A DNA stretch of 64,000 nt, from positions 1 to 64,000 of the IMG/VR virus record IMGVR_UViG_3300045988_133913. The stretch is one strand, 5' to 3'. The translations under genes were made by a program, and so were the position numbers. Each line of letters starts with the position of its first letter. The first letter of the stretch is position 1. Source of the stretch: a virus. The notes beneath the pieces were generated by a model. It was not told the DNA's origin. It made no database searches and saw only the letters and a program-made list of their open reading frames with translations. Positions 6,388-23,927 of this stretch are shown one piece after another.

Positions 6388-7284
6388 ATGCCACGCTCTG
6401 ACAATGACGGGATGAACTTCGACGACCTGTTCGGCAAGTGGGGCGGGAAGCCTGACAAGAACGGGAAGAAGAAAGATACGACGCCGAAAGTTCCGGCGGA
6501 TAACCCTGCGTGCAAAAACACCGGGGTCACGGATGAAGGGATAGAGCAGTCTTCCCGCTGGAAGTCCATGCTGTCTGCCGCCATCATGGCGTACAACACA
6601 TGGAATAGCCTGCGCATGGCGAAGTTGCAGCGCGACCTCGCCAGAAAATATTTGCAGATGAGCAAAGACCATCGCAAGTATTACAACGACCGCTTCAAGC
6701 CGCTGGAGAAAGACCTCACCAAAGAAGCGCTGAAGCTGAAGAAGTATGAGCGCGACAAAGAGCCGCTTTATACCGGGCAGATGCTGGTAAGCGTGCGGGG
6801 GAAGAACGCGGGTCAGATTGACAAGGCGGTGTCCTGTACGGGGCGCTACTGCACCGGGCAGCGAGCAGCCATCATAACCGACCAGCTCCTCAAGCAGGCG
6901 ACCCAAGAGAGCCTCGCTGCGGGCATGGCGCATCGCTACACGGACAAGGAAGAAATCGTCCACAACAATCTGCGGTGGGACAAGCGCGAACAAGTGCTGA
7001 AAATCGGGCGCGACATCCCGGCGCAGGCGTCCAGCTTTGCTCAGCTCGCCGCTGGAATTTTCGGCGACCTCGGCACGCAGGCTGGCAAGGCAGCGGAAGG
7101 CGCGATGAGTTTTATCGCCTACGAGAGCAACCGTGCGCAGACACAGTACCCACCGCGACGGGGGGATATGCAGGTGAGCAGCTACCGCTACAATCCTACA
7201 CCGCTTGAGGAGTTCAAGCCGAAGCCGCCGGATGTGTACGTGAAGCCGGAAGAACCGACGCAGACCATAAAAGTGATGGGGTGA
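6388..7284 (+). CDS. hypothetical virion protein, paralog of 7288-8211
   Basis: C-terminal block AAGIFGDLGTQAGKAAEGAMSFIAYESNRAQTQY aligns with AAGLFGDYAKAMGNVASGAMAFSGYVNNRMQTEY in the next gene. Confidence 0.5.
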   Translation: MPRSDNDGMNFDDLFGKWGGKPDKNGKKKDTTPKVPADNPACKNTGVTDEGIEQSSRWKSMLSAAIMAYNTWNSLRMAKLQRDLARKYLQMSKDHRKYYNDRFKPLEKDLTKEALKLKKYERDKEPLYTGQMLVSVRGKNAGQIDKAVSCTGRYCTGQRAAIITDQLLKQATQESLAAGMAHRYTDKEEIVHNNLRWDKREQVLKIGRDIPAQASSFAQLAAGIFGDLGTQAGKAAEGAMSFIAYESNRAQTQYPPRRGDMQVSSYRYNPTPLEEFKPKPPDVYVKPEEPTQTIKVMG

Positions 7285-7287
7285 TAA

Positions 7288-8211
7288 ATGAGCGGATTAC
7301 CAGTCGTTGTAACCACCGGTAGGCTTGAGCGGGTAAATGACGTTTCCATCAAGGCGTTCCCTTGCCCGAAGGTAAACGACAAGGGGCTGACGGGAGCTTG
7401 GTGGTGGGCAGATAAAATCGCCATCGCGGTTGCGCTATGGGCTACCTACGAGACATGGAAGGCGGCGAAGGAAGAATACAAAATCGGCAAGGACTACTAC
7501 GACCTTGCGAAAGAACAATGGGATTTCTTCCTCGAAAACTACCGCCCGCTGGAAGACCAAGAGCTGTCAGAGATATGGGCAGAGCCTCCCTACGAGCCAG
7601 ATTACCCCAAATCCATCGCAGGGCATACCAACACCATAGACAAGGTTTTCGCCGCCGCAGAACGTCATAGGAGCGCCCTCACGGATAAATATTGCGTCTG
7701 CCCCGACGTGTCGATGTTCACCAAGACCGACATCATGAAATCAACCGTGCGCGGCGACTCTGATAACTTCGGTCGTCGCTACGCCGAGAAGCTGGCGCAG
7801 GAGAAGAACGACATCCGCTGGCAGCGACGCATATCGACCGCCAGTCGTGGACGCAACCTGCTATCCGAGAGCGCCTCCCTCGCCAGCAAGGCGGCAGGGC
7901 TGTTCGGGGACTATGCTAAGGCGATGGGCAACGTAGCATCAGGGGCAATGGCGTTTTCCGGCTACGTGAACAACCGGATGCAGACGGAATACAACCCGGT
8001 GCGCCAACGCATCAACGCCCGTGCTGATGTGCCGAATACTTACCGGGGATTCGACGCACAGGCTTACTGGGGCGACGGCAGCCGGATGCTGGAGAACACT
8101 CCGCGCGGGGGCATTTCGTGGCAGCAAGCGGAAGCCAACGCACCCTACGATGGCGCGGGTGGGGTTGCAGGTTACGACCCGACAGGATATGCTTCCGCTT
8201 CAATGAGATAA
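7288..8211 (+). CDS. hypothetical virion protein, paralog of 6388-7284
   Basis: Shares the same C-terminal block. GGGGTG RBS. Confidence 0.5.
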   Translation: MSGLPVVVTTGRLERVNDVSIKAFPCPKVNDKGLTGAWWWADKIAIAVALWATYETWKAAKEEYKIGKDYYDLAKEQWDFFLENYRPLEDQELSEIWAEPPYEPDYPKSIAGHTNTIDKVFAAAERHRSALTDKYCVCPDVSMFTKTDIMKSTVRGDSDNFGRRYAEKLAQEKNDIRWQRRISTASRGRNLLSESASLASKAAGLFGDYAKAMGNVASGAMAFSGYVNNRMQTEYNPVRQRINARADVPNTYRGFDAQAYWGDGSRMLENTPRGGISWQQAEANAPYDGAGGVAGYDPTGYASASMR

Positions 8212-8223
8212 GGGGACGAAATA

Positions 8224-9555
8224 ATGTACATACCAGATTTATTCGGCGCGTTCATGAAAGGCAAGGAATATGCTAACGACCGTAACTGGAATGACCTCAA
8301 GCAGTATGAAGCGGTAGAAGCCGCTCGCAACGCCAACGACCTTTCCTCGCTGGATATTCTGGGGCAGCGGGCGCAGTTCGGTGGCAAGATGAGTGTTTTC
8401 CAGAACAACGTGGATAACTCCGCACGGGCAAACGAGGTTGCCGAAGCCGCGCAGCCGGGGCTACTTGCCAACGCCAGCACAGGTAGCATGATTCAGATGG
8501 ACCAGCGCAGCGCGTTTATGAACAACCGCGACGATTACCAGACCATGCTGAACAACACAGCCCAAGCCAATATCGGTAAGGGCATCGACGCGGCGGCGGT
8601 GCAGATGGGCGCTAACGATTACCTGACGCCTGAACGTGCCGCGCAGATGGGTGGCTGGCGCGGGGAGGACATTTACAACACGGCGATGTCCAACAACATC
8701 ACCACAGGTCATGCGCCAACGGTTGCCGCGCAGGGCGTCGTAACGAATGACAAGCTGTACGATAATAATCTGCTAGGCTTGGACTACGACCGTGATGTGC
8801 TGGAAGGGAATATCAAACGCCAGCCCGTAATCGGTGCTATTAAAGACCGCAACGCCGCCAACCAGTACGCCGACGCGAACACCTACCTGACCGACAAGGC
8901 GAAGTTAGTGCAGCGAGAGAACCAGCGCCAGCGACAAGGGCTTCTGAACACGATTAGCAACCTCCAGCGCCAGCGTGCAGCATTTGCCGCCGACCCGATG
9001 ATGGCAGGGCAGGTGCAGGAACTCACGCAACAGATAGCCGAGTATCAGGCAGAGCTTCAGCGACTGACTGGGGGCGAAACAGCGGATGTGTACATCACCG
9101 CGCCGGGTCAGGCGATGGCGACGGTGCGCAGCCTCGTGCCGGGCGGGCAGGTGTACCAGCAGGGGGTTGGTCCGCGACCCCTGCAAGGACAGGTCATCAT
9201 GCCGCCCCCGCAGCCTGCGCAGCAGCCCGTGCAACAACCCCAATCCGCACCGCAAGCCGCTATTGACCCCAAAGTTCATTCGCAGAACGTGGAAGCCAAG
9301 ATGGCGTACGTTGCCGACAAGCAGGCGCAGGGTACGTATGACCCGAACGAAGTCATCATGATTGACGGTGTCCCTTACACCGCAGGGCAGCTTGTGTACC
9401 TCCAGAACGTTCAGCCTAGTATGACAAGCACCGTAGCAGAAGGGGTATCTATGGGGCTGCTAGGGCCGGTGGGTTACGCCAGCCAGTATTTGCTCGGGAC
9501 TAATCCTGCGTATGCCCGGCAAATCGCGGCGGCACGTGCAGCAGCGGGGCGGTAA
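8224..9555 (+). CDS. hypothetical virion protein (443 aa, Q/P-rich C-terminal region)
   Basis: Long ORF in the structural run with a GGGG RBS. Confidence 0.5.
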   Translation: MYIPDLFGAFMKGKEYANDRNWNDLKQYEAVEAARNANDLSSLDILGQRAQFGGKMSVFQNNVDNSARANEVAEAAQPGLLANASTGSMIQMDQRSAFMNNRDDYQTMLNNTAQANIGKGIDAAAVQMGANDYLTPERAAQMGGWRGEDIYNTAMSNNITTGHAPTVAAQGVVTNDKLYDNNLLGLDYDRDVLEGNIKRQPVIGAIKDRNAANQYADANTYLTDKAKLVQRENQRQRQGLLNTISNLQRQRAAFAADPMMAGQVQELTQQIAEYQAELQRLTGGETADVYITAPGQAMATVRSLVPGGQVYQQGVGPRPLQGQVIMPPPQPAQQPVQQPQSAPQAAIDPKVHSQNVEAKMAYVADKQAQGTYDPNEVIMIDGVPYTAGQLVYLQNVQPSMTSTVAEGVSMGLLGPVGYASQYLLGTNPAYARQIAAARAAAGR

Positions 9556-9558
9556 GTT

Positions 9559-10446
9559 ATGGCACGGAGGAAGGGGAATACCAACGAATCGCGCAACATG
9601 AGTATGGTGTTGCAAGCGTTTCAAAATGCCGGGTTGTCGCCAAACCAAGCGCGGATTCTCGCCGCCGAGGTGGGGCGGGAAAACGCATTCCAAGACCGCT
9701 ACCTGTGGGGGTATCACAAAGACCCCGGAAACGGCGCGGTCAATCTGGGGATTATCTCGTGGCAAGGCACACGCGGACGGAATCTGGAGAAACAGCTTGC
9801 GGCACAAGGGCTGATTAAGAACGGGGTGATGGAGCAGTCACAACGCGCGCTGGATGCACAAGCGCGCTTTTTGGTAAACGAGATAAAGAACGACCCTGCC
9901 TACGCCAAGACCAAAAAGCTGTTTCTGTCCAACCCGAACGTGGACTACAACACAGGCGTCCGGGTGCTGGGTAAGGACTTTATCCGCTGGCGCATCGACG
10001 ACCCGAAGTACGCTGCCAAAGGCGCGGCGTCCCGTGACGGTTTTTATCGGAAGCTAGGCGGGGTAGCCCCGCAAGATGGTGGCGTGGTGCAGACAGGAGC
10101 GTCTGCGCCCTCCGTAGCGCCGCTTATTCCGGCGTCTGGGGCGATAAACGCAGCAGCCAATACCGTGAATGACCTGATGGCACAGAACGCTCCCCAGAGC
10201 GACCTGATGGGCAAAAACGTGCTGGCTGGCAGCGTAGGCTTCGCCGTTCCAGAAACACCTTTGCAGAACAAACTGTACGGCGAGGTCGCAGAACAAGGCT
10301 TACCGCCGCAGAAAGAATCCATCGCGGCGGTGGCGGCTGATACCATCTCGAAAACTTACGACCAGATGTTTAACCAACCTTTGGTAAAATCCTCCAGTCC
10401 TAGCATCGACGCGCTGATGCAAATCTTTAACGCTCTGGAAGTCTGA
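9559..10446 (+). CDS. internal virion protein with lysozyme-like (phage-tail-lysozyme-type) N-terminal domain
   Basis: AEVGRENAFQDRYLWGYHKDPGNGAVNLGIISWQGTRGRNL resembles the conserved block of phage tail lysozyme / PG hydrolase domains. It sits directly before the giant gene. Confidence 0.35.
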   Translation: MARRKGNTNESRNMSMVLQAFQNAGLSPNQARILAAEVGRENAFQDRYLWGYHKDPGNGAVNLGIISWQGTRGRNLEKQLAAQGLIKNGVMEQSQRALDAQARFLVNEIKNDPAYAKTKKLFLSNPNVDYNTGVRVLGKDFIRWRIDDPKYAAKGAASRDGFYRKLGGVAPQDGGVVQTGASAPSVAPLIPASGAINAAANTVNDLMAQNAPQSDLMGKNVLAGSVGFAVPETPLQNKLYGEVAEQGLPPQKESIAAVAADTISKTYDQMFNQPLVKSSSPSIDALMQIFNALEV

Positions 10447-10448
10447 TA

Positions 10449-13400
10449 ATGGCGAAGAACAATTCTCTCGAAACTCCCCTCTCCATGCCTAAACTGCCTG
10501 ACCTCGACCAAGACCTGTTCGGCGCGGGCGCAGGGGCGATATTCAACCAGTCCGATGACCTGCTCAACCCGAAGGCGGTAGCGCCTCTGGGGGCGCAGCA
10601 AGGCAAACTTTCTCCGGCTGCACAGGCGCTGGCATCGGCACAGCGTGAGCAGAACGACCTGCTGAACTACGCGACTGAACAGCAGGCGAAAATCCAGCAG
10701 CAGGAAGCCCGCCAACAGGCAGCGTTTGACCGTCAGCAGGCGGCACAGCGCCGGGAAACCGACGCGGCTATCCGCCAGTATCAGCGGGACAAAAAGGAGC
10801 GCGAGAAGGCGCTGAAAGAGAAAGCGAAGGAACAGGGCGGTGTGCTAGGCGCTGGCGCGGATGGTTCGTTTGTCCTGAAGCCGATGGTTGAAACCATCCT
10901 AGCTGATAAGAATTGGAAGGACATCAAGTCCAGCTTCCAGCGCGAGGACGAGGCGCAAGGCTGGCTGAAAGAAAAAGCCGTTCAGTTGAAGGAGCAGGGC
11001 ATCCCCGAAGACCTCATCAACAACGAGCTGCGGGTGGCTGGCGCGCTGTTCAAGCAGGATACGGACGCCTACACCAAGCAGCGTTCGGAAGACCGTGCTG
11101 ACCCGCTCGATGCGGTTTCATGGCTAGGTAAGGCAGGGCGCAACCTATACAAAGGCACGGTGCTGTGGCTATCCCCGGTATGGAACAAAACCATCGGCAA
11201 AACGGGGCTTACTTTCGACACGGAGGAGTTTGTCCGCGAACAGAATGACGCGATAAATTCCATTGATTCAACGTTGTCCGACAAGATTCACTTTGCCCAA
11301 GAGAACAACGAATACCTGACCCAGAAACGCCGGGCGCAGGGTAAGGACGGACTTGTTGCAGGATTCACAGGCGGCATCGCCGATATGTGGAAAGCGGACA
11401 ATATGCTTTACACCATGCTGGACTCCGCCGCTTACATTCCTTACTCCGCCGCTGTAGGCGCGAGTGCGGGGGCGTTTGCTTCTCGCGTCGGCGCGGCTAC
11501 TCGTCTTACCCCGGCGATTGAAGGTATTACCGCGCGGGTAAACGCCGCTGCGGCTGCACCGGGTGCAAGTCTCGCGACGCGAATCGGCGCTAAAGCGGCT
11601 TCTCACCTGTTATCTTCCGAGGTAGCGGGTGGTATGGCGACTACCGGGTTCTTTGCCGCCACGGACGCCGCTGGTGGCGCATACGACGCCGTTTACAACC
11701 AAGACGAGGACACCTTCCGCCAGACCTACATCAAAGCAAACGGCGAGGAAAACTGGAACAACCTCGTGCAGTATTACGGCTCTGCGGGCAAAGCACGTGC
11801 AGCGCTCGCAGAACAGGCTGCGGTATCGGCAGGTAATTCCGCCTTCATAAACACCGCGCTGCTAGGCGCTGCCGGTTTGGAAACTACGCTGCTCAAGGCG
11901 AACAAGTTTGGGCTTCAGACGTTTGCGGGCAAGCGCTTGGCGACGGCTGGCGCTAACTCCGTGTCTGAACTCCTCGAAGAAGGCTTGACGCAATATTCAC
12001 AAAACGTCGGCGCGCAGCCTGCGACTGGCGTGGATTTGCTGGAAGGCGTGCCGGAAGCAGCCGCTATCGGTTTCGTCGCAGGCGGCTCGATGGCAGGCGG
12101 TACGCAGGTGCTTGGTGCGCTAGGCAAAGGCGTAAAAAACTACGTCGCTCCAGAGTTCGATGCAGCACGGCTTGACCCTACGCAGTACGTGCATCAGAAT
12201 CAGTTGGACTACGACAGCTATCGGCAGGTGGTCGGGCGCGAGATGGACAACATCGCACGCACCGGACGCCGGGCTAAGTGGCACGAAACTGACATCGGCT
12301 CTGCGCAGCAGATGGCGTATGACACGATAATCGACGACCCGTCCAAGTGGGAATCCTTTACGCCAGACCAGCGCGCGCAGATGCAGGAGTACCTGAAGCA
12401 AGCCTACAACATCAACACCAACCCGTATGCCCAAGTGGAGCGTCAAACGCTGACTGACATTTGGGAGAATGGCGACACGCACGTACTGAATGCTTGGCTG
12501 CAAAGCGAGGAAAAAGGCATCGGCGAGGACATACGCAACGCCTTCCGTGTCAAGCACGGTGTCGAGTTAGAGAACGTGCCGGATGGTGTGCGCGCCTACT
12601 CTGAAGCGCTGGCTAACGCTATCGACTACCAGATTGCCGCCCCGGTACTACGCGACACGAACGAGCAATGGAAGGCGATGCGGGATTACGTCAAGACCCA
12701 AGTCGAGACTAACCCGACGCTCACCCGCGAACAGCAGAAAGGCATCGACGCCATTCTCGCTAATTACCTCGATGCAGGTCGTCGTCGCTTGACCGATGAG
12801 CAAGTCGCGGCGGCACAATCACAACCGACAGGACAACCCAATGAGCCAGCAAATACCGGCGCAGGACAAGGCGCGCCTACTGAAAATACTCAACCAGTCG
12901 CAGGAGAAAGCGGTGCAGCTCCGGCAGCAGGAGCAGGAAGCACAGGCGGAGAAACCCAAAGCGTGGGGCAGCCTGACGCTGCACCGGCAGGAGGAGTTAA
13001 TCCTCAAGGCGCTGGAGTCGATAATGCACAGCAAGGAAATCAGCCCGGCGGTGGGACAGACGCTCCCGCCCAAACTGTTCAGCCTGCTGGAGGAGCAGCG
13101 CAAGCACCTGCATCTGGGGCGCAGCCGGGAGTTACAGCCCCGGTTGGAAATGCTGGTCAAACGGCTGCGGGACAAAGGGCTGCTGGACAGACCAGCGCAA
13201 CCGGACAACCCGCTCAACCGATTAACCCCGGCGCAGCGCCGCAGGCAGGAAGCAGCGGAGGCGTTGGAGCTGCGACGCCAGAACGCAATCCAAATGGTGG
13301 AAGCAACCAAGCTGCTACCCAAGCGGTCGGTGTAACGGGCGCTTATAGCCCGCAGGCTGATTTACGCGATGCTAGTCATGCGTGGGCACAGTTATCCAAA

Positions 13401-16400
13401 GCGCAAAAATCAGCTCTCGCGAAAATTGGCATCAGCACCCCGGCGCAGTTGCTGGATATTCTGAAAAACGACGACACAGTCGCCGAAGCCGGGCAACGTC
13501 TGGCGCGGACTGGTCGCGTGCGCAGCATGACGATGAAGTCGGTGCAGGACGCGCTGAAAGCCGCCCGTGACTACATCACGTCGCCAGAGTGGGTGTTTAA
13601 CAAGCTGACCCAAGACCAGCTCGGGCTTAGTGCCAACGAGGCAAGTATCCCCGCGGCGGTCGCAGCGCTTCAGGCAAGCGACGAAATTACCGCACGGAAA
13701 ATTAGCCAGCTCGCCAAAGGCGCGGCGGAAATCTACGGGCTGGAGGACGCCTCTAAGGAAGACAAAATCGCCTACGCAGCCAAGCTGCTGCTTGACATCG
13801 CACAGCTCGCCAAGACCTCACCACAGCTATTAGATGTGGCGATGCGGCTCAAGGGCGCGCCGGAATCGTGGTTTCAGGACGACGTTGACAAGCTGCTGAA
13901 GAACGACATCTGGGCGACGCTCCAGTCTGCACCGGGCATTTTTGAACAAGCCGGGGTGGACTTCAGCCAGTCCCGCCCGAACGTCACCCAGTCACAGCAG
14001 AATCTCTGGTCGGCGCGTGCGGTATTGTTCACGCTGAAGCAGAACATCAAGGCAGGCGATGCCAGAAGTAAAGCGGTTCAGGCAGGGCTGGATAAAGCCG
14101 CCAAGCGCATCACCGACATGGGCGGCGAAAAAGGACGCCTCTCGCTGCTGTTTTCGATGCTGGAAGCCGACAGCCGGGGCGAAGACCTGACAGGTTTTCT
14201 GGAAAACTACTACATCGGTTCGCGCGCTTCGGCAGATGCTATCGCGGGCGTTATCCGCGCGTATCAGGATGCGAAAACCTACATGGCATCCCCCGACTTC
14301 CAGAACAGCCTGCGGGCGGATAACTGGCTGCGGCAGGCGGACAAGTCGGTTTACGTGCAGGCTATCCGCGATTATGTGCGCAATAATTACGCAGCATTCA
14401 ACCAGATGCTGATTCAGGATGCCGAAGTGGCGTCTGGCAAGAGCGCCCGCACGCGCGTCGCTGGCACGAATTTTGAAACGCAGGCAGTAAACACCGACAT
14501 TCTTGCCGACGTACTGGCTGATGTGGTGCATAACACCGCACGCCTCGGACGGGAGTATGCAGGCGAGATTGCCCGCTCCTACGCCGGACGGGATGAAAAC
14601 GGCAACCGGGTTATCAAGCCGTCTGCGGTCAAGCGTTTTCTGGAACAAGCAGATACCATCGCAGCTAACCTTCGGCAGCAGTATCTGGACGGTAAGCTGG
14701 CGCAACAATCCACCCAGCCTGAAGACGAGTCCGAGCAGTTGGTACAACAGGGCGACGACCTTTCCCGCCTGATGGAGGAGTTCAACGCCGGGCAGCAACC
14801 GGATGCCGACGCGGTCATGGGCGACCTCGACGACGCCGTTCGCGGCATTCCGGCGCAGCCGCGCAATGGTGAGAAGCAGATTAAAAACGGTGGCTTCGAC
14901 AGCCCTGAAGCGGCAGAAGACGCGCTTTCCCCGGAGTTGTTCCAGCACCCGGAAACGGTGGAAGAACTCGATACGCTGTTGCGGTCCATCGCAGAAACAA
15001 CTGGGCTAGACCCGCTGCTGGTCGGCGAGTATATTGCTCGTGAGTGGTTGAGCCAGTCGGAAGAAGACTACGCAGATGCGTCAACAGACGAACTGCTGGA
15101 CATGGTGTACGACGCGGCTAACGATATTTGGATTTACGTTGGAGAACAGAATGCAACACAACAAATTGCAGATACAAAACGTCTCGAAGGACCTCGCTCG
15201 ATTACTGCCGACGGACGGCGCATCACGCGACAATCTCAAGACCCTACTGGGTCACTGGCAAGAGCGTTACAGCCGAACCTCTCCGGCGGCGCATACGCAC
15301 AGCTAGCCCGTCCTAGCCAGCCTGCCCCGGTGCGACTTGCGATAGCACCTGTCGAGGAGATTGTTGCCGAGTTCGGCGGGCAGGAGTTCTCCCTCGCTGA
15401 GATTATCGAGAATACCGAAAACCAGCGGGGAGACCGTTCACCCACGCTAGGCGAACTCGCACCGGAAGATAACAACGCCCCGCGCCCGGTTATCGAACTG
15501 ACGGTAAATGGCGTGAAGCACCGGGGCAGGCTATTCCGCTGGCGTGACCGCAAGAACGGTCGTAATCGTCGTCATGTGGTGTTTGTCCACGACGGCGACG
15601 CTTTCGGTATGCGTGGGTGGGACGATAAGTGGATAGACTTTGGTAATGCTGTTACCCGCAAGCGTGTGGACAGCATCAACCAAAACGACGGCATCCGCAT
15701 CGAGGTGCTGGCAGACCAATCTGAAAATCAGGAGCAAACAAATGATAAAACCGAGAAACGTACTCAGCGAACTGGGCGCAGCGAGACCGAGGATGAAAAC
15801 AATTCAGGAATCGTGGGGGACGTTCGAGATGCCGATGTCGCCGCGCGAGGAAGCGACAACACGGATGCGCGAGCTGATGAATCCGAGCAGGACGAAGGTT
15901 CTGGGCAGTCCGATGAAAGTGAACGCGGAAGTGGAGCGGCTGAAGGACGACTAGAAACCCCTGCGCCCGTAGATGTTCCGCAGGGGCTAGACTACACCCC
16001 CGAGCAGGTAGCAGAAATTGACCCGGCGTCGCTTACGGCGGATGAGCGTGCAGCACTTAACCGCCAAGACGATACGAGCGAGTTTATTGCTAACGCCCTC
16101 TACGACATCGAGGGCGCGCTGGAAGATTTCGGTGGGGAAGATTCTGCCGCCCTGCGCAGCGGGCTTGCCAAAATGGCAGCGCTGCTGGCAGACCCTGCTG
16201 CGCCAAGACGGGCTACGCCGACGACGGTTACCGAACAAGCCGCCGGGCGCAAAGAGGTTGCCGACATTATCACCGACGAGGAGCGCGACATTCTCGACGC
16301 CTACCTCGAAGACGTCGGTAACACCGAGCAGAGCGCGGAGGAGTTTGCCGAAGAAGCCATCGCCGACAACCAGTTCGAGGATAGCAGCCTGCCGAAGAAA

Positions 16401-19400
16401 GTCCGCGCTGTGCTGGAGCGTATCTGGAACGCGCTGCGCAACGGCATGGCGGCTGTCTCGATGGCGTTGGCGGTTCACCTCGGCTCAAGTATGGTCGTCA
16501 GCCAGCCTGCCGAAGCCGCGAACCTCACTCCGCAGGCAGGCGAGGTGGTTATGAGCAGCGCTGCCAAAGCGTCGCTAGACCACATCATCGACACCGCCGA
16601 CAACGGTGGACGCCCGTTTGTGATTGCCGACAAAAAGGCGGGCAAGCTGTACCTGATGAACGCCGAGGGCAAGGTGGTGGACACCACTCCGGCGCTGTTT
16701 GGCAAGACGCCTTCCGACGCCGCGAAGACGGCGGGTGCTACGGGTGCGGGCAAATACGACCTGACCTACAACCGCGACACCCGTCTGCCATCCGGTTACG
16801 CGGGCAGCGTGCAGTCGTTCGACACCGGAGCAAATGGCGAGCAGTTTGCCATCCACCGTGTTATTGACGTCAAGGGGCAGAACCGTCAGAGCCGACTGGA
16901 TAGCAAGACCGTCCGCGACAACCGCATCACGCTTGGTTGTATCAACGTTCCGGCGGAGTTCTACGACGCCCACCTAGACAACGAGCTAGGCGCGGTGCTG
17001 TACGTGTTGCCGGAAACCGCTAACTGGGGTGGCGACCTGTATGGCAAGACCCCCCGTCAGTCTGCACAGCCGACGCCACAGGCGGTTAAAATCGCAACCG
17101 AGGGTACTTCCCTTACCCCAGAGCAGTTACTGGCTGCAACGCGCTCTCAGGCGGATAATCTGATAGCGAACGTACGTGGCAACATGGACAACGCCAGCTA
17201 CCAGCCTGTGCAGGTAACACCCGAACAGTTACAGGCGGCGACGGAAGCCGGGCGGAAGGTAACGACCCAACCTGTGCAGGCGCAAGCGCCCATCCAGATT
17301 GCGGGCGTCCAGCCGTCCACGCAGACCGCCTATATCAGTCCGGTCATGGTAAACGGTGTATCCGCTAACACCCTTGTCGTGCCGTTCGAGGCGCATACCC
17401 CTGCCGAGATGCAAGCAAATGGCGTGTTCGACACACAGCCTGTAGGTAACAAGACCGAGAGTGGGGATAGCCTGTACACCATCGCGTCGTGGCTGGCTGC
17501 CGCGTTCGCTGCGGGCAAGGTGAATAGCCGTCGCAAGAAGCGTCTGGAGAGCCGCAAGAAAGCCAACGAGGAACGGTTGGCGCGGATTGAAGCGAAGAAC
17601 AATCCAGAGCTGAAGTCTGAACCGGAGGACACTTCCGTCGTTCCAGACGAAGCCGAGGTGGAAACCGCCGTCGCCGACAACCACGACGTGCAGGCAGCCT
17701 TTGCGAAACAAGCCGGTACACACAACCCGCAGACGCCGCTGTCGCAGGCGGTCGCGCAGGCTGTGCGCCAGCAGAACGTGCTGGAGAATAAAGCCGATTG
17801 GATTCATGCATTCGCGATGCGGTATTCCAGCGATGAGGCGCAGTACCAGCAACTGCTCGCCACGATGGGCAATTTCGAGTACAACCTCGGTGGTGTGCTG
17901 ACCGACCGCTCTTACACCCAGAGTGGTGACTTCCGTGACCGCAGGCGCTGGCGCGGCGACCAGACTGATGCAAGCCGTGTGGGGATGTTGCAGGCGTTCA
18001 TGCGCTTCGCAGGCGGGGCGACGGTTGCGTTCGATAATCTGTTGCACCGTGTCGGGTCTGCCGCGTTCGGACACGAAGCCGACAGCGCCATCGCCAGCAA
18101 GATGCTCTCGCAGGTACGCGCCAAGTCGTCCGGGGCGTATGCGCAGCTACACAAGACGCTCATCCACCCACTCGTCATGCAGACCGCCACGCTTGCCAGC
18201 CAGATGCGTCGGGGTCACGGCGAGATTGAAATCGACACCGGCAGAACCGCCACGCTGAACCACATCCTCAACGAAGGCGCGGAGCAGATGTGGAAAGGTG
18301 CAGAGCTGGAAATCGCCAAGATGAAGCTGGACTTGCAGGAGGTGGAAGCGCAAATCCGTTCTACCGCTGCCGGGTCGCAGATTCAGCAGACGTGGACGAG
18401 CAAGCAGTTGCAACTGCTGAAGGACATCGAAGCCGCCCAGACACTCCTAGACCGCCAGCGCGATATGTACTACGGGCGCGAGGAGTGGGACGGCACGACT
18501 GACCTGCCGGGTGGTTACACCGAGGCGCAGGCTAAGACCGAGCTGCAAGCGCTCAAGGATAAATACGGGGAAGACTTCGCCAAGATTGAAGCGCACAGCA
18601 AGGAGCTGGTGCAGACCATTCAGGGCATCCGCAACTTCGCCGCCGCTGCTGGGGTAGTAACCAACGACCAGCTAGCGATGTACAACGAGATGGGCTTCAA
18701 GGAGTACGTACCGCTGTATTCGCCGCAGGAAGATGTATCCAAGACTGACGAAAGCATCAGCATCATGCAGACCTCCCGCATGGACAGACTGCTGGAAGGT
18801 ATCCCGCTGGCACAGGCGAAGTCGATGGGGCTGACCCGCGACCTCTCCCGCTTTAAGCGTAAGGGCGCAACCAGCCCGGCGGAAGACGCTTATACCAACA
18901 TGAAGGTGTATGCGATGAACACCGCAGGACGTGTGGGGCAGCAGGGCTGGTTGCAGGCGGTGCAGCAGCTCTACGAAGGCACAATCGGCAAGCCGTACTC
19001 CGTGGCGGGTAACCTCGGCGAAGAAACGCTAAAAGAGCTGAACAGCCAGCCGGAAGGCAAGCTGCCGGGGCTGATTCGTGTGCGTCCGGGTATGGAGGAT
19101 TACCTGCCTGCCCACTTGCAGACCGCCATCGCAGCACCGGGTGGACGCATCCGCGCTATCCGCGCCAAGGGCTACAACAGCGCAGGCGAGCTGGTGGACT
19201 ACCACTACTACTTCACGGACAAGGCAATCCAGCAAGAGGTTTACTACACCTCGGACACCAGCGAGAGCTTCATGATGCGTATCGGGCGCAACGCCGGGAC
19301 AATTACCCGGTTCGCCGCGCGGATGATGACTACCTTCCGCCCCGTCTGGAACGTGTACAACTGGGTGCGGGACAGCATCGAGCGGATAAGCATTATGATT

Positions 19401-21143
19401 GCCCGCCCGGTCAAGGACAAAAACGGTGACCTCATCAACCGCTGGACGCTTGCCAAGACCTACGCATCGCACCTCGCGCGTCTCGCTTCCAGTCTGGAGG
19501 CGCAGAACGAAATTATGCGCTACCTCTCCACAGGCGAGCTGGTGACAGAACTTCAGCGCACGCTGGATGAAGCCGTCGGGGAAGGTGCAATAAACCTGAT
19601 GACGACCCAGACGGACAAGCACTCCGTGATGAGCGACCTGCGCAAGTCCGACCTTGACCGCCTGCTGGATACCACCTCAAGGATGCTTGGCACGACGGCA
19701 AACAAACTGGGTGTCGGTCAGGGCAAGGCATGGCTAGGGGATATTGCCGAATACTACGTGCAGCGCATGACGGAAGTGCCGCAGGTAACGACGGCGCTGG
19801 CGTCTTATCTGGCGTACCGCGAACTTGGCGTGAACAAGCACGAGCGCGCCAACCGGGTGCGCGACCAGTATGACCCGACCCGCACCCGCAGCGAGATTGT
19901 GCGCGGGCTATCTACCATGTACCCATTCGTGCGTTCCACCTTCTCCGGTCACTACAACCTGATGCGGACGCTGAGTGAATACTGGAATCCCGGCGAGCGT
20001 GGCTTCACCACCCTGTACCTCGCTGGCGGCACTGCTGCCATGATGGCAATCCTTGCCCTCGCCGCAGGCGCTATCGGCGACGACGATGACGGTGTGCCGC
20101 TGGTTGCCCGTATGCCCATCGGTACACTCATGAACGGCATCCCCATCCGCACGCCGGATGGTGGTGTCTGGAGTGCGCCTGTAGGCTTCGGGATGCCCAA
20201 GCTGATGTGGGGGACGGCGGTCAACCTTTACCGCCTCGCCTACGGCGAACAGAGTGCTTCTGACATGAGCCGCTCCATGCTAGGACTGGTGATGGACAAC
20301 ACCTCACCTGTGCAGGTGGCAAGCGGCGCGGCGTTCGACCGCGATGTGGGCGCGGGCGCGGCGCTTAGTTTCGCCCCGCTGCTGGCTGTGCCGTTTGTCG
20401 AGATGATGACAAACACGAAGGCATACACCGGGCAGAAAATTTACAACCGCGAAACGCCCAGAGGCGAACGTGATGCCGACCAAGGTGGGTTCAACATACC
20501 GGAAGCCTACAAGGACACCGCACAGACTCTCACCGGCATGGGTATCGACGTGCGCCCGGAAACGCTCAAGCACCTGCTGGAAACATTCAGCTATGGTCCG
20601 CTCAAAGCGATACCGACCTCCCTGCTGGCGGACAAGTCCGAGAAGTACCTCGGCAACCGCGAGACGAAAGGGGAAGCCGCAGGCGCGCTTGTTACCGCTA
20701 TCGGGATGGACATGGCGTGGTCGCCACACGCGCTGGACGACGAGGCGCGGGTGTACCAGATGCTCGACGATATTTACCCTATCTTGGGGAGATACGGCAT
20801 TACCGAAATCTCGCACGACAAGAGCGAATACAAGCGCTTCGGTATCGAGGGGCGGGAGAACCGCAAGGCACGTCTGCTATACGCCAAGATGGTCGCCGCT
20901 GGCGCACCAGAGTGGGAAGCGTCCTTTGTCCGCGACGCGGTTATGCACAAGACCTCGCGCCAGAAAGCCATCAAGGAGTTCCAAGCAGGGTCGGAAGCCT
21001 ACCTGAAAGCGAAGGCTAACGGGGAGGAAAACGAACAACTGCGTGCAGCCCTTGAAAACCAATGGAATGCCATCGAAAATAGCGACCAGAATTTCCTACG
21101 CCAATACAACGAAGACGCCTATGAGATGCAAGACGACTACTAG
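10449..21143 (+). CDS. giant virion-associated protein (3,564 aa), putative internal/ejection protein, with an embedded YkuD-like L,D-transpeptidase domain
   Basis: Uninterrupted 10.7-kb ORF. It has a G/A-rich N-terminus, a G/P/Q low-complexity linker and acidic tracts. The YkuD-like block spans nt 16557-17015 and includes a GC(I)N catalytic-like motif. Confidence 0.8.
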   Translation: MAKNNSLETPLSMPKLPDLDQDLFGAGAGAIFNQSDDLLNPKAVAPLGAQQGKLSPAAQALASAQREQNDLLNYATEQQAKIQQQEARQQAAFDRQQAAQRRETDAAIRQYQRDKKEREKALKEKAKEQGGVLGAGADGSFVLKPMVETILADKNWKDIKSSFQREDEAQGWLKEKAVQLKEQGIPEDLINNELRVAGALFKQDTDAYTKQRSEDRADPLDAVSWLGKAGRNLYKGTVLWLSPVWNKTIGKTGLTFDTEEFVREQNDAINSIDSTLSDKIHFAQENNEYLTQKRRAQGKDGLVAGFTGGIADMWKADNMLYTMLDSAAYIPYSAAVGASAGAFASRVGAATRLTPAIEGITARVNAAAAAPGASLATRIGAKAASHLLSSEVAGGMATTGFFAATDAAGGAYDAVYNQDEDTFRQTYIKANGEENWNNLVQYYGSAGKARAALAEQAAVSAGNSAFINTALLGAAGLETTLLKANKFGLQTFAGKRLATAGANSVSELLEEGLTQYSQNVGAQPATGVDLLEGVPEAAAIGFVAGGSMAGGTQVLGALGKGVKNYVAPEFDAARLDPTQYVHQNQLDYDSYRQVVGREMDNIARTGRRAKWHETDIGSAQQMAYDTIIDDPSKWESFTPDQRAQMQEYLKQAYNINTNPYAQVERQTLTDIWENGDTHVLNAWLQSEEKGIGEDIRNAFRVKHGVELENVPDGVRAYSEALANAIDYQIAAPVLRDTNEQWKAMRDYVKTQVETNPTLTREQQKGIDAILANYLDAGRRRLTDEQVAAAQSQPTGQPNEPANTGAGQGAPTENTQPVAGESGAAPAAGAGSTGGETQSVGQPDAAPAGGVNPQGAGVDNAQQGNQPGGGTDAPAQTVQPAGGAAQAPASGAQPGVTAPVGNAGQTAAGQRAAGQTSATGQPAQPINPGAAPQAGSSGGVGAATPERNPNGGSNQAATQAVGVTGAYSPQADLRDASHAWAQLSKAQKSALAKIGISTPAQLLDILKNDDTVAEAGQRLARTGRVRSMTMKSVQDALKAARDYITSPEWVFNKLTQDQLGLSANEASIPAAVAALQASDEITARKISQLAKGAAEIYGLEDASKEDKIAYAAKLLLDIAQLAKTSPQLLDVAMRLKGAPESWFQDDVDKLLKNDIWATLQSAPGIFEQAGVDFSQSRPNVTQSQQNLWSARAVLFTLKQNIKAGDARSKAVQAGLDKAAKRITDMGGEKGRLSLLFSMLEADSRGEDLTGFLENYYIGSRASADAIAGVIRAYQDAKTYMASPDFQNSLRADNWLRQADKSVYVQAIRDYVRNNYAAFNQMLIQDAEVASGKSARTRVAGTNFETQAVNTDILADVLADVVHNTARLGREYAGEIARSYAGRDENGNRVIKPSAVKRFLEQADTIAANLRQQYLDGKLAQQSTQPEDESEQLVQQGDDLSRLMEEFNAGQQPDADAVMGDLDDAVRGIPAQPRNGEKQIKNGGFDSPEAAEDALSPELFQHPETVEELDTLLRSIAETTGLDPLLVGEYIAREWLSQSEEDYADASTDELLDMVYDAANDIWIYVGEQNATQQIADTKRLEGPRSITADGRRITRQSQDPTGSLARALQPNLSGGAYAQLARPSQPAPVRLAIAPVEEIVAEFGGQEFSLAEIIENTENQRGDRSPTLGELAPEDNNAPRPVIELTVNGVKHRGRLFRWRDRKNGRNRRHVVFVHDGDAFGMRGWDDKWIDFGNAVTRKRVDSINQNDGIRIEVLADQSENQEQTNDKTEKRTQRTGRSETEDENNSGIVGDVRDADVAARGSDNTDARADESEQDEGSGQSDESERGSGAAEGRLETPAPVDVPQGLDYTPEQVAEIDPASLTADERAALNRQDDTSEFIANALYDIEGALEDFGGEDSAALRSGLAKMAALLADPAAPRRATPTTVTEQAAGRKEVADIITDEERDILDAYLEDVGNTEQSAEEFAEEAIADNQFEDSSLPKKVRAVLERIWNALRNGMAAVSMALAVHLGSSMVVSQPAEAANLTPQAGEVVMSSAAKASLDHIIDTADNGGRPFVIADKKAGKLYLMNAEGKVVDTTPALFGKTPSDAAKTAGATGAGKYDLTYNRDTRLPSGYAGSVQSFDTGANGEQFAIHRVIDVKGQNRQSRLDSKTVRDNRITLGCINVPAEFYDAHLDNELGAVLYVLPETANWGGDLYGKTPRQSAQPTPQAVKIATEGTSLTPEQLLAATRSQADNLIANVRGNMDNASYQPVQVTPEQLQAATEAGRKVTTQPVQAQAPIQIAGVQPSTQTAYISPVMVNGVSANTLVVPFEAHTPAEMQANGVFDTQPVGNKTESGDSLYTIASWLAAAFAAGKVNSRRKKRLESRKKANEERLARIEAKNNPELKSEPEDTSVVPDEAEVETAVADNHDVQAAFAKQAGTHNPQTPLSQAVAQAVRQQNVLENKADWIHAFAMRYSSDEAQYQQLLATMGNFEYNLGGVLTDRSYTQSGDFRDRRRWRGDQTDASRVGMLQAFMRFAGGATVAFDNLLHRVGSAAFGHEADSAIASKMLSQVRAKSSGAYAQLHKTLIHPLVMQTATLASQMRRGHGEIEIDTGRTATLNHILNEGAEQMWKGAELEIAKMKLDLQEVEAQIRSTAAGSQIQQTWTSKQLQLLKDIEAAQTLLDRQRDMYYGREEWDGTTDLPGGYTEAQAKTELQALKDKYGEDFAKIEAHSKELVQTIQGIRNFAAAAGVVTNDQLAMYNEMGFKEYVPLYSPQEDVSKTDESISIMQTSRMDRLLEGIPLAQAKSMGLTRDLSRFKRKGATSPAEDAYTNMKVYAMNTAGRVGQQGWLQAVQQLYEGTIGKPYSVAGNLGEETLKELNSQPEGKLPGLIRVRPGMEDYLPAHLQTAIAAPGGRIRAIRAKGYNSAGELVDYHYYFTDKAIQQEVYYTSDTSESFMMRIGRNAGTITRFAARMMTTFRPVWNVYNWVRDSIERISIMIARPVKDKNGDLINRWTLAKTYASHLARLASSLEAQNEIMRYLSTGELVTELQRTLDEAVGEGAINLMTTQTDKHSVMSDLRKSDLDRLLDTTSRMLGTTANKLGVGQGKAWLGDIAEYYVQRMTEVPQVTTALASYLAYRELGVNKHERANRVRDQYDPTRTRSEIVRGLSTMYPFVRSTFSGHYNLMRTLSEYWNPGERGFTTLYLAGGTAAMMAILALAAGAIGDDDDGVPLVARMPIGTLMNGIPIRTPDGGVWSAPVGFGMPKLMWGTAVNLYRLAYGEQSASDMSRSMLGLVMDNTSPVQVASGAAFDRDVGAGAALSFAPLLAVPFVEMMTNTKAYTGQKIYNRETPRGERDADQGGFNIPEAYKDTAQTLTGMGIDVRPETLKHLLETFSYGPLKAIPTSLLADKSEKYLGNRETKGEAAGALVTAIGMDMAWSPHALDDEARVYQMLDDIYPILGRYGITEISHDKSEYKRFGIEGRENRKARLLYAKMVAAGAPEWEASFVRDAVMHKTSRQKAIKEFQAGSEAYLKAKANGEENEQLRAALENQWNAIENSDQNFLRQYNEDAYEMQDDY

Positions 21144-23062: not shown

Positions 23063-23406
23063 ACTACAAACCCTATATTTACGCCGCTGCCTGCCTGTTC
23101 ATGCTCTGGTGTGGCTATGATGCTGGCAAAACCGTGGGTCGGCAGGATATGCAGAAAGAAGTCCACGCGGCAAAGCTGGAAGTGGACAACATGAAGCGCC
23201 GGGCGCAGGAGATGGCAGACAACCACGCGAAGCAGATGAGTGCCGCCAGCAAGATGTATCAGGAAGTACGTGCAGAAGCCGAAGCTAAACAGAAAGAAAG
23301 GATTGTAAAAGTGCGGGAGATTGTGGAGAAGCCCGTGTACCGTAGCGACTGCATCGACAAATCAGGGTTGGATGAAATCAACAAGGTAATTGGAGGAAGC
23401 AAATGA
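23059..23406 (+). CDS. i-spanin-like protein (N-terminal TM anchor plus periplasmic coiled coil)
   Basis: The N-terminus YIYAAACLFMLWCGY is hydrophobic. The rest is charged and helical. Strong GAGGAGG RBS. Confidence 0.5.
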   Translation: MNYKPYIYAAACLFMLWCGYDAGKTVGRQDMQKEVHAAKLEVDNMKRRAQEMADNHAKQMSAASKMYQEVRAEAEAKQKERIVKVREIVEKPVYRSDCIDKSGLDEINKVIGGSK

Positions 23407-23927
23407 ACGAACTCGACTGGATTGCCGAAGGGCGCAAACTCATCGGCGTGGAAGAAAACGCCAACACCTCTAAGGTCGTCGCCATGTGGCGCGATGGCTT
23501 CGAGGCGTCGGGACAAGCCGGGCGGATGAAAGAGTCCGTGTGGAATACTGGCAGCACGCCGTGGTGCGGAGGCTTCGTCGCCGCCTGCCTCGCCCGTGCA
23601 GGTCTGGGCAAGCACGTGCCGAAAGACTTTCCGCTTGCGCGTGCATGGGCTAAGGTAGGCACACCGCTCTCTAAGCCCGCGTATGGCTGCGTGGTCGTCT
23701 TTACACGCGACGGTGGGGGTCACGTTGGCTTTGTCGTCGGTAAGGACACTAAGGGCAACCTGATGGTGCTAGGCGGCAATCAGGGCAACCACGTCTGCAT
23801 CAAACCGTTCAGCAAAGCGCGCGTGCTGGCGTATCGCTGGTGCGGGCAGACAGGCGCACCTGCACAGGGTCGGTACGACCTACCGCTACTGTCGTCGGAT
23901 GGCAAGGTGAGTACGAATGAAGCGTAG
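23403..23927 (+). CDS. TIGR02594-family peptidoglycan hydrolase (endolysin candidate)
   Basis: Motifs TPWCGGFVAACL and GGHVGFVVG match the TIGR02594 family. GGAGG RBS. Confidence 0.55.
   Translation: MNELDWIAEGRKLIGVEENANTSKVVAMWRDGFEASGQAGRMKESVWNTGSTPWCGGFVAACLARAGLGKHVPKDFPLARAWAKVGTPLSKPAYGCVVVFTRDGGGHVGFVVGKDTKGNLMVLGGNQGNHVCIKPFSKARVLAYRWCGQTGAPAQGRYDLPLLSSDGKVSTNEA

Follow-up and report, generated by a model that had tools for sequence, protein, structure and literature searches.

We find that the window, by which we mean the whole 64,000-nucleotide stretch of viral DNA that was analysed, encodes a divergent copy of the YkuD (L,D-transpeptidase) fold that lies between two hydrophobic, putatively membrane-spanning segments of a 3,564-residue phage protein. 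The giant ORF runs from 10449 to 21143 on the plus strand, and the module occupies 16557..17015 (+), an open frame of 153 aa in frame with that ORF, which corresponds to residues 2037-2189 and comprises an N-terminal helix followed by a catalytic beta-domain (core ~16617-17012). A preliminary description, made from the DNA alone, had placed the module at about aa 2030-2190, in agreement with these limits, and the strings which it quoted (FVIADKKAGKLYLMNAEGKVVDTTPALFGKTPSD, FAIHRVIDV and SKTVRDNRITLGCINV) are all present in the translation of 16557-17015. As a whole, our observations are best explained by an ejected polyvalent protein with a periplasmic YkuD module that would act on peptidoglycan, a reading that we regard as evenly poised between right and wrong.

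That residues ~2037-2189 have a YkuD fold is, in our view, close to certain. The Pfam YkuD profile (PF03734; 146 positions), the one named for checking in the preliminary description, matches the segment over its positions 3-128 with E=1.2e-4; at 23.1 bits for the segment alone the match falls just under the gathering threshold of 23.4, and searched as a whole the protein scores 18.1 bits (E 0.0043). The same profile is matched by 62 of the 126 family members (E<=0.01, best 3.5e-9), and the YkuD homology of the window sequence, whose own score is marginally under the threshold, is supported through its relatives. The AF2 model of the module (pLDDT 77, pTM 0.79, with pLDDT <50 in parts between the TGAG strand and the His) has the YkuD beta-sandwich, and when it was compared by Foldseek with the PDB the best 50 matches were almost exclusively Ldts, with probability 1.0; the transpeptidases Ldtfm and LdtMt2 and the hydrolases Csd6, Pgp2, DpaA and Tlde1a matched about equally well. 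The Pfam match, the model and the Foldseek matches together bear out the earlier proposal that a YkuD-fold module is embedded in a giant phage protein. Among PDB sequences no Ldt was found by phmmer with the module or by hmmsearch with the 126-sequence profile, which gave IgA protease/NHL repeat noise only. Similarly, hhalign of the 126-sequence alignment (A2) against E. coli LdtA or DpaA singly, and in local mode against a three-sequence Ldt profile, gave short, non-significant N-terminal matches, and the module had no match in NCBIfam. A forced global profile alignment with E. coli LdtA puts the motifs in register and is without statistical weight.

Is the active site preserved? The predicted general base, His2136 (codon cac, 16854..16856, +), lies within an (F/Y)AIH strand as in LdtA, here FAIH, in register with LdtA YAIH in the forced global alignment, and it is invariant in our 11-, 126- and 10-sequence alignments. 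So is the G-C of the active-site motif T-L-G-C2164-I-N-V (16929..16949, +; Cys codon tgt, 16938-16940), which has the form of the G-C-h-(N/R) loop. The His/Cys dyad is conserved in every homologue examined, and neither of the two findings on which the preliminary description was to be given up, absence of a significant peptidase match and absence of a conserved dyad in homologues, was made. The module belongs to a divergent YkuD subfamily in which the Cys/His dyad is intact and a conserved, Arg-rich insertion separates the two residues. This His-Cys spacer (residues 2137-2160; 16857..16928, +) is family-specific, with columns that are invariant in A2 and in divergent phage modules: R2146 and R2149 are invariant and D2157-N2158-R2159 near-invariant. 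In the model it forms two short helices, and in the forced global alignment it contains a 12-residue insertion relative to LdtA.

The module differs in several respects from the YkuD/ErfK Ldts (PF03734; B. subtilis YkuD, E. faecium Ldtfm, M. tuberculosis LdtMt2, E. coli LdtA-E), which are periplasmic housekeeping enzymes whereas the phage module sits mid-way in a 3,564-aa protein. The published Ldt motif is HxX14-17[S/T]HGChN (PMC5445500). Relative to it, the phage spacer is X23, some 6-9 residues longer than in canonical Ldts, with the two invariant Arg in its helical insertion; the residue following His2136 is Arg rather than a small residue; and Leu2162 stands ahead of G-C in this clade where the motif has His, so that the second His of [S/T]HGC is lacking. 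The X23 spacer, the Arg after the His and the Leu before Gly-Cys are the true departures from the Ldt motif and had escaped the preliminary description, which had instead singled out the Asn after GCI as unusual; that Asn is canonical, being part of the published motif. The residue before G-C is variable in the family: it is His in the close relatives L006-L009 (THGCINV) and in L024 (SHGCINV), which fit [S/T]HGChN, and Y, F, S, A, N, W or Q in other members. E. coli LdtA has SQGC and LdtE SSGC at this point, and the residue preceding G-C is therefore not essential. The counterpart of the substrate-binding TPxG strand, which is TPxG(x)F in its full form, is ATGAGKY (2097-2103), in which the Thr and second Gly are kept and Pro is replaced by Gly in the clade. 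The earlier assignment of TPxG to TTPALFG was misplaced, since that string aligns with the preceding P-x-x-x-G strand (LdtA PIGIGQ) and ATGAGKY with TPxG itself. Seven of eight more distant giant modules keep the strand as TPAG or TPSG, L033 having TEAG, and the bacterial family has TPAG. We think that the module is probably catalytically competent.

Cys2164 is the sole cysteine of the 3,564-aa protein, while cysteine makes up 1.43% of residues in the 29 other ORFs (binomial P ~3e-21). Relatives of 3,564-4,081 aa on 11 IMG/VR contigs likewise have one Cys, and a single Cys at the GC motif is found in every full-length giant ORF of the clade. Of nine distant giants, 6-7 share this feature; the giant ORFs present on other contigs of viral origin are 2,100-5,500 aa long, and the majority are single-Cys. 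The protein shares its cysteine depletion with its two upstream neighbours, which are Cys-free, unlike the remaining proteome. Because the catalytic Cys is the only Cys of the protein, the module most likely acts on the host cell wall during infection. The module is also the best conserved stretch of the giant protein: it is 80-89% identical to its relatives, whereas most of the protein is 30-70% identical, and its dN/dS is 0.05-0.15 as against 0.15-0.42 elsewhere in the gene. In seven of nine distant giants it is the only region that BLAST can align, L024 and L025 aligning elsewhere too. The linker that follows it (residues 2190-2341; 17016..17471, +) is rich in Ala/Thr/Gln/Val/Pro and weakly conserved (34-51% identity to relatives, dN/dS 0.34-0.40). 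We also considered recent horizontal acquisition of the module on grounds of composition and rejected it, as the GC (61%) and GC3 (77%) of the module are inside the range of the other segments of the gene (GC 59-67%, GC3 63-80%).

The subfamily consists mostly of bacterial proteins of ~250 aa with a signal peptide; clustered at 50% identity, this unannotated set of secreted YkuD-like proteins comprises over 2,100 groups. The standalone bacterial homologues have no conserved gene neighbours, which makes their genomic context uninformative. On viral contigs the domain occurs in two settings, as a unit with a hydrophobic segment in the middle of giant, almost Cys-free ORFs, which is seen on many contigs, and as small signal-peptide versions encoded by separate genes. 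Among 50,697 deposited phage records we found no match to the module or the gene by tblastn or megablast, and the family consensus gave only three weak matches in deposited phage records, all to Stenotrophomonas siphophages. The C-terminal third of the giant protein has one match among deposited phages, a Pasteurella phage hypothetical protein (25% coverage, 24.7% identity), and the C-terminal 964 aa have 4 matches in a 5.8-billion protein set. The phage sequences come from human-associated samples in IMG/VR, and a hint of the host is given by a 99% identical fragment labelled as a Cardiobacterium sp. MAG; the GTDB genome representatives contain no close relative, and the phage is therefore without a prophage or host assignment.

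The first of the two hydrophobic segments, TM1 (residues 2001-2017, AAVSMALAVHLGSSMVV; 16449..16499, +; Kyte-Doolittle 1.73), resembles a signal peptide, with basic residues ahead of it and SQPAEAA behind (net charge +2 before, -2 after). It is kept in relatives, and in the alignment it falls on the signal peptides with which the standalone homologues begin. A comparable hydrophobic segment precedes the module in most distant giant ORFs, with none above threshold upstream of the module in L033 and L034. The second, TM2 (residues 2342-2358, LYTIASWLAAAFAAGKV; 17472..17522, +), was recognised from hydropathy and charge and is followed by NSRRKKRLESRKK, with a net charge of +7. The clade retains this basic cluster, and a counterpart of TM2 is present in L024; in the more distant giant ORFs no TM2 equivalent was found. 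TM1 and TM2 with their flanking charges predict a periplasmic loop in this clade, the prediction being made because the second hydrophobic segment is trailed by the +7 charge cluster. An internal start at Met2000, which would yield a separately secreted product, was considered and rejected because relatives have CTG or GTC at that codon.

What kind of protein carries the module? Ahead of a strand switch, the giant ORF comes last among the large genes and closes the structural block, where distantly related podophages have the last of their structural genes. It lies near internal virion protein genes, the upstream ORF 4315-5952 matching PHROG 511 'internal virion protein' (E 4.9e-83). An LPD38 domain (residues 3237-3388; 20157..20612, +; Pfam PF18857, 48.3 bits against a cutoff of 27, E 1.6e-12), present in homologues P0275-P0277 too, marks the giant ORF as a polyvalent protein of the phage type, and structural neighbours in BFVD are annotated 'Large polyvalent protein associated domain-containing protein'. 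From gene position, LPD38 and Cys depletion we infer that the giant protein is a virion/ejection protein, for which the hydrophobic segments are a further, indirect sign. Immediately upstream is a 295-aa Cys-free ORF (9559..10446, +) that is a possible glycosidase partner, matching Phage_lysozyme2 with E 2.4e-4 and 21.7 bits (cutoff 28.2) as well as PHROG 6922 and 19273, both of unknown function; its comparison with PDB sequences gave noise only, and its identity as a glycosidase is tentative. Downstream, a CHAP-domain protein (23403..23927, +; PF05257, 33.5 bits against a cutoff of 26, E 5.9e-8) is the likely endolysin, and the YkuD module would therefore not be needed for lysis.

We consider it somewhat more probable than its opposite that at entry the target of the module is periplasmic peptidoglycan. 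Entry is preferred to lysis because of the position in the structural block, LPD38, the separate CHAP candidate and the adjacent, weakly lysozyme-like ORF, and the periplasm is preferred because of the signal peptides of the standalone homologues, the charges about TM1 and TM2, and the Cys depletion. If we assume that the giant protein is packaged and ejected as a polyvalent protein, then TM1, with positive charges ahead of it, and TM2, with +7 behind it, would enter the inner membrane after ejection, and residues ~2018-2341 would be exposed in the periplasm. There the Cys2164 thiolate, activated by His2136, would attack the L,D bond after meso-DAP of the peptidoglycan stem to form an acyl-enzyme; to our knowledge attack on the L,D peptide bond after meso-DAP is shared by all YkuD-fold enzymes. 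Water is the agent that we consider most likely to resolve this intermediate, and the resulting activity could be that of an L,D-carboxypeptidase, an endopeptidase, or a DpaA-like amidase that frees protein from peptidoglycan. The sacculus or the outer-membrane tethers might in this way be loosened locally around the DNA-delivery conduit, and the module would complement the glycosidase that may be encoded directly upstream. That the module is a net hydrolase and not a transpeptidase is a tentative proposal, to which we give a little less than an even chance.

Alternatively, the module could be a true transpeptidase, in which an acyl-enzyme formed from a tetrapeptide stem is resolved by an amine. 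The ejected protein or the conduit might be covalently stapled to the peptidoglycan, much as LdtA-C attach Lpp, or extra 3-3 cross-links might reseal the wall, or make it stiffer, where the phage enters, much as the Ldts of Bdellovibrio reinforce invaded prey. We hold this to be unlikely: the scores of YkuD-fold hydrolases (Csd6 11.0, Pgp2 10.8) come close to those of the transpeptidases, wall strengthening has no obvious benefit to DNA delivery, and we identified no candidate acceptor Lys or DAP-like motif in the phage proteins. Less likely again is that the module is active but not for entry, serving late in infection, in release, envelope remodelling or superinfection exclusion, or that it is a non-peptidoglycan effector domain of a polyvalent protein. 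The small signal-peptide versions exist as separate genes on viral contigs, and therefore the domain can function without a virion context; also, polyvalent proteins join functionally disparate domains (PMC5512222). We give the same low weight to a covalent docking step in place of wall cutting, in which the thioester between Cys2164 and the host stem persists or passes to a phage amine and so staples an inner-membrane part of the conduit to the sacculus, or to cleavage of the conserved TM1 at AEA|A by host signal peptidase, which would leave an N-fragment facing the cytoplasm and a C-fragment that bears the enzyme and is anchored in the periplasm. Were either true, phage genome delivery would gain a step that is new, and infection would be sensitive to carbapenems or copper, both of which inhibit L,D-transpeptidases.

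Slightly less probable still is that the module is inactive in this phage and has a peptidoglycan-binding or purely structural role, setting the position of the giant protein within the envelope. Leu in place of the second His, TGAG in place of TPxG, the long spacer and a score under the Pfam gathering score would all be in keeping with this; but the nucleophile is the lone Cys of 3,564 aa, as it is in most distant giants, the His, G-C and Arg residues are invariant, dN/dS is the lowest in the gene, and LdtA and LdtE of E. coli, which also have no second His, are active. The weak whole-protein Pfam match (E 0.0043) might have raised the suspicion that in so long a protein the motifs match by chance, or that separate genes were fused by faulty assembly, but both ideas are effectively refuted by the single-Cys relatives in the clade, the distant giant ORFs and the fold search, and we regard them as negligible.

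How does the preferred reading, entry by an ejected polyvalent protein with a wall-directed YkuD module, compare with known systems? T7 gp16, with its N-terminal lytic transglycosylase, and polyvalent proteins with lysozyme, SpoIID or DD-peptidase domains likewise have a wall-directed enzyme domain in a large protein at the end of the structural module (PMC5512222, PMC13434306). Ejection proteins of the T7 gp16 type also share membrane-interacting segments and the proposed logic of breaching peptidoglycan at entry, but here the catalytic fold is YkuD and the domain is internal with hydrophobic flanks rather than terminal. The giant protein has no PHROG or Pfam match to T7 gp16, N4 gp50 or other characterised ejection protein families; the N4 ejection proteins appear, according to the authors of that study, to be without any peptidoglycan hydrolase (PMC13434306). 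It resembles the polyvalent proteins (Iyer, Burroughs, Anand, de Souza and Aravind, 2017) as a giant multi-domain phage protein with LPD38 near its C-terminus and differs in that its 3,564 residues yielded no catalogued domain besides LPD38 and the YkuD-like module, and no zincin-like processing peptidase. The main text of that 2017 survey does not name YkuD (PMC5512222), the PhaLP lytic-protein database has only 10 YkuD entries, and we found no description in the literature of a YkuD domain within a giant phage protein. Among YkuD-fold hydrolases are the L,D-carboxypeptidases H. pylori Csd6 and C. jejuni Pgp2, the Lpp-peptidoglycan amidase DpaA/YafK of E. coli, and Tae5/Tlde1 of the Salmonella T6SS, a YkuD-related L,D-carboxypeptidase that is a precedent for a delivered weapon. 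The phage module has no sequence-level match to Csd6, Pgp2, DpaA or Tlde1, its spacer is longer, not shorter, and no immunity gene would be expected.

How short-tailed phages cross the peptidoglycan is only partly understood. Our study describes a class of giant, nearly Cys-free phage proteins (2,100-5,500 aa) with one conserved core, a hydrophobic anchor joined to a divergent YkuD-fold Cys/His domain, and a large bacterial subfamily of secreted, unannotated YkuD-like proteins is defined along with it. The lone Cys can be mutated, alkylated or acylated by a carbapenem in a protein of 3,564 residues, which makes it an unusually clean experimental handle. If the module is active, L,D-specific chemistry at meso-DAP would join the repertoire of phage entry enzymes, and the finding may help to explain why ejected proteins avoid cysteine.

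The segment at 16557-17015 (+) lies in frame within a single 3,564-codon ORF at 10449-21143 (+), and its translation gives 153 residues, 2037-2189 of the giant protein, with His2136 encoded by the cac codon at 16854-16856 (+) and Cys2164 by the tgt codon at 16938-16940 (+). All the strings quoted in the preliminary description of a YkuD-like catalytic module are found in this translation, so the observation is real. From this phage's sequence by itself, the evidence for a YkuD domain is borderline: Pfam PF03734 scored 23.1 bits against the segment alone (E 1.2e-4; gathering score 23.4; match to profile positions 3-128 of 146) and 18.1 bits against the whole giant protein. The only PHROGs match was to the unannotated family phrog_38499 (E 1.6e-8), NCBIfam gave no match and PDB sequence searches returned only noise.

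It is the relatives and the structure that make the case strong. A search of 5.8 billion proteins yielded 10 homologues of the module (27-40% identity, all 143-289 aa), a profile from these found more than 5,900 proteins, and representatives of 50%-identity clusters, searched exhaustively, gave 2,136 family members. Among the matches listed, most are "hypothetical proteins" of ~200-300 aa with N-terminal signal peptides, and the few with an organism label are from Burkholderiales (Piscinibacter, Polaromonas); the bacterial side of the family is a large unannotated subfamily. The top match to the family profile, P0011 (287 aa), aligned in two separate stretches and may hold two tandem copies of the module. 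Individual Pfam YkuD matches were obtained for 62 of 126 aligned members (best 3.5e-9), and when residues 2030-2199 were modeled with AlphaFold2 from the 126-member alignment (pLDDT 77, pTM 0.79), the model's best 50 Foldseek matches in the PDB were almost only L,D-transpeptidases (Ldts), with probability 1.0. Judged on relatives, model and Foldseek together, the YkuD fold first proposed from the sequence was the right call, and we regard the assignment as settled.

Three alignments, of 11, 126 and 10 sequences, agree without exception on the His in (F/Y)AIH, on the Gly-Cys in [S/T]-x-G-C-[IV]-N-V and on two intervening Arg residues, and almost without exception on the D-N-R directly ahead of the Gly-Cys motif. 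Compared with the published Ldt motif, HxX14-17[S/T]HGChN (PMC5445500), of which the Asn after GCI that had been thought unusual is a canonical part, the window's version, H-R-X23-T-L-G-C-I-N, has an Arg after the His, a His-Cys spacer 6-9 residues longer and a Leu in place of the second His that precedes Gly-Cys in many Ldts. In the AlphaFold2 model the invariant Arg residues sit on two short helices formed by the longer spacer; His-Cys spacing varies across the superfamily, being shorter in DUF2778/Tlde1 and eight residues in DpaA. The Leu is not disqualifying, because close relatives L006-L009 (ITHGCINV) and the IMG/VR locus L024 (ISHGCINV) have His here, and the active E. coli enzymes LdtA and LdtE have Gln and Ser, respectively. 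The TPxG region had been misplaced: "TTPALFGK" matches a P-x-x-x-G strand, and the true TPxG strand is "ATGAGKY", whose Pro is lost in the window's clade and kept by the bacterial family and by most of the distant phage relatives.

Cys2164 is the one cysteine in all 3,564 residues of the giant protein, while cysteine averages 1.43% in the phage's 29 other larger ORFs (probability of at most one, about 3e-21). Among the clade's giant ORFs on 11 related IMG/VR contigs, every full-length one (3,564-4,081 aa, counted from the aligned start) also has just one Cys, located at the GC motif; at two of the 11 loci only part of the ORF is present. When the protein is compared with two of these loci in 100-residue blocks, residues 2001-2200 rank near the top with L005 (84-89% identity) and first with L007 (80-81%), most of the protein being 30-70% identical. 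The module's dN/dS values, 0.05 and 0.15, are the lowest of all segments (0.15-0.42 elsewhere), the ratios being approximate as dS is near saturation. By these comparisons the Cys/His pair is conserved and evidently under strong selection.

An IMG/VR pattern search that used the family alignment located the module in nine more, far more divergent giant ORFs of 2,105-5,524 aa (L024-L027, L031, L033, L034, L038 and L040), in all nine mid-protein and usually after a hydrophobic segment that has basic residues N-terminal to it. By BLASTP, seven of the nine align to the window's giant protein only at residues about 1981-2198, the hydrophobic segment plus module; L025 has an extra weak C-terminal match and L024 aligns along most of its length. 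The catalytic Cys is the sole cysteine in six of the nine, and a seventh has one additional Cys at position 3, which probably precedes the real start. The 5,524-aa ORF, at 602-17173 of L027 (IMGVR_UViG_3300048582_000144), has three extra cysteines upstream of the module, two in a CxxC at residues 2792 and 2795 and one at 2821, a cluster that suggests a small metal-binding site. From the alignments, the hydrophobic anchor and YkuD unit, usually with the sole cysteine, is the conserved core of a whole class of giant phage proteins. Structural neighbors of the module in BFVD are also chunks of giant phage proteins, with names such as "Gene product 88 domain", "Large polyvalent protein associated domain" and "Podoviridae sp. 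ctlpi2" (68% identity); one is called "L,D-TPase catalytic domain-containing protein", so at least one relative has already had the domain recognized by automatic annotation. Standalone versions of 178-287 aa with signal peptides are separate genes on contigs classed as viral (L042 2524-3060; L028-L030, L032, L035-L037), and the domain therefore circulates in phages outside giant proteins too.

Two hydrophobic segments flank the module. TM1 (residues 2001-2017, hydropathy 1.73) has K/R residues before it and SQPAEAA after, and in the alignment it falls where the standalone homologues have their signal peptides. TM2 (residues 2342-2358) precedes NSRRKKRLESRKK, a stretch with net charge +7. The positive-inside rule would make residues 2018-2341, comprising the module and an A/T/Q/V/P-rich, poorly conserved linker after it, a periplasmic loop. 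TM2 was found in the window's clade and L024 and was not found in the more distant giants, which limits this topology to the one lineage. An internal start at Met2000 was rejected, as the Met is not conserved.

Toward the C-terminus, LPD38 (PF18857, residues 3237-3388, 48.3 bits) has a hydrophobic segment just ahead of it (20013-20063, residues 3189-3205, hydropathy 1.85) and another within it (20346-20396, residues 3300-3316, hydropathy 1.74), and so may be a membrane-inserting domain. Within the N-terminal half, the block at about 14949-15548 (residues 1501-1700; 65-75% identity to L007, surroundings 22-56%) ranks second in conservation and is possibly another functional domain; a basic, beta-rich motif, RPVIELTVNGVKHRGRLFRWRDRKNGRNRRHVVFVHDG, at residues 1679-1715 (15483 onward) starts near its end and runs just beyond, and neither block nor motif had a Pfam or PHROG match. 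A ~180-residue low-complexity stretch rich in Ala/Gly/Gln/Pro (12807-13343, residues about 787-965) gives rise to spurious long ORFs at 12796-13335 (+, other frame) and 12819-13322 (-).

The giant gene is the last of a + strand structural block, to which a portal-like ORF (57183-59291) and a PHROG "internal virion protein" (4315-5952) belong. It ends a run of three consecutive + ORFs of 443 (8224-9555), 295 (9559-10446) and 3,564 aa with zero, zero and one Cys (average for the rest of the proteome, 1.43%), as would fit a trio of proteins crossing an oxidizing periplasm and ordered in the manner of T7 gp14/15/16 or N4 gp52/51/50. The 295-aa ORF has a weak, below-threshold match to Phage_lysozyme2 (E 2.4e-4). 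Some 2.3 kb downstream of the giant gene a 174-aa CHAP-domain ORF (23403-23927, +; Pfam E 5.9e-8, above threshold) is probably the endolysin, and small unannotated ORFs in between could include holin or spanin genes. Also within the block, adjacent ORFs of 298 and 307 aa (6388-7284 and 7288-8211, +) both match unannotated PHROG 37635 (E 1.4e-25 and 4.5e-18) and look like a tandem duplication, and an ORF at 1852-2550 (+) that encodes Rha (Pfam E 1.4e-7) and KilAC (E 1.1e-23) antirepressor domains hints at a regulatory or temperate-phage ancestry.

Distant relatives of the portal occur in 55-68-kb phages from several hosts, including Vibrio phage CHOED, Aeromonas phage MQM1 and Roseobacter, Rhizobium and Sinorhizobium phages; complete relatives among the clade's IMG/VR loci (L001-L011) are about 66 kb. 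Where the window phage has its one giant gene, MQM1 has several mid-size genes, and neither giant gene nor module matched deposited phage genomes. GTDB representative genomes carried no close relative. The protein search matched P0278, an entry named "MAG: hypothetical protein, partial [Cardiobacterium sp.]" that corresponds to a piece of the giant protein's C-terminus at 99% identity.

What would such a module do? From established Ldt chemistry (PMC5445500) and the Tae5 paper, the His would deprotonate the Cys, which would then attack the carbonyl of meso-DAP3 in the tetrapeptide stem, releasing D-Ala4, or the cross-linked or attached partner, as a thioester forms; the context would have this take place once the protein has been ejected into the host, on the periplasmic side, while the domain is anchored in the inner membrane. 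If water resolved the intermediate the module would be a carboxypeptidase, endopeptidase or amidase, and if an amine did, a transpeptidase. We tentatively favor net hydrolysis, at somewhat short of an even chance, because cleavage would ease the conduit's passage through the wall and would complement a glycosidase; hydrolases and transpeptidases are structurally equally close to the module. The proposal of an L,D-endopeptidase or carboxypeptidase acting on 3-3 cross-links or Lpp attachments during genome delivery seems reasonable. Its first rival is transpeptidation, stapling or resealing the wall; others are an inactive binding domain, which would have to be squared with the invariant His and Cys, and a non-entry role. 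A chance resemblance to YkuD is hard to reconcile with the relatives and the Foldseek matches.

In function, the module's nearest analogue is Tae5/Tlde1, a T6SS effector that is injected into rival cells and acts as an L,D-carboxypeptidase related to YkuD. The 2017 polyvalent-protein survey names lysozyme, SpoIID-like and DD-peptidase domains, its main text having no mention of YkuD, ErfK or transpeptidase; PhaLP has YkuD-type domains in 10 phage lytic proteins only, and no relevant paper came up in our literature search for L,D-transpeptidase/YkuD together with ejection proteins, virion-associated proteins or giant phage proteins. Both the YkuD fold and virion-borne wall enzymes are already known, and the module is a variant of both rather than a new category. 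Nevertheless, the finding is larger than the preliminary description reported, as it takes in a whole class of giant phage proteins and a bacterial subfamily.
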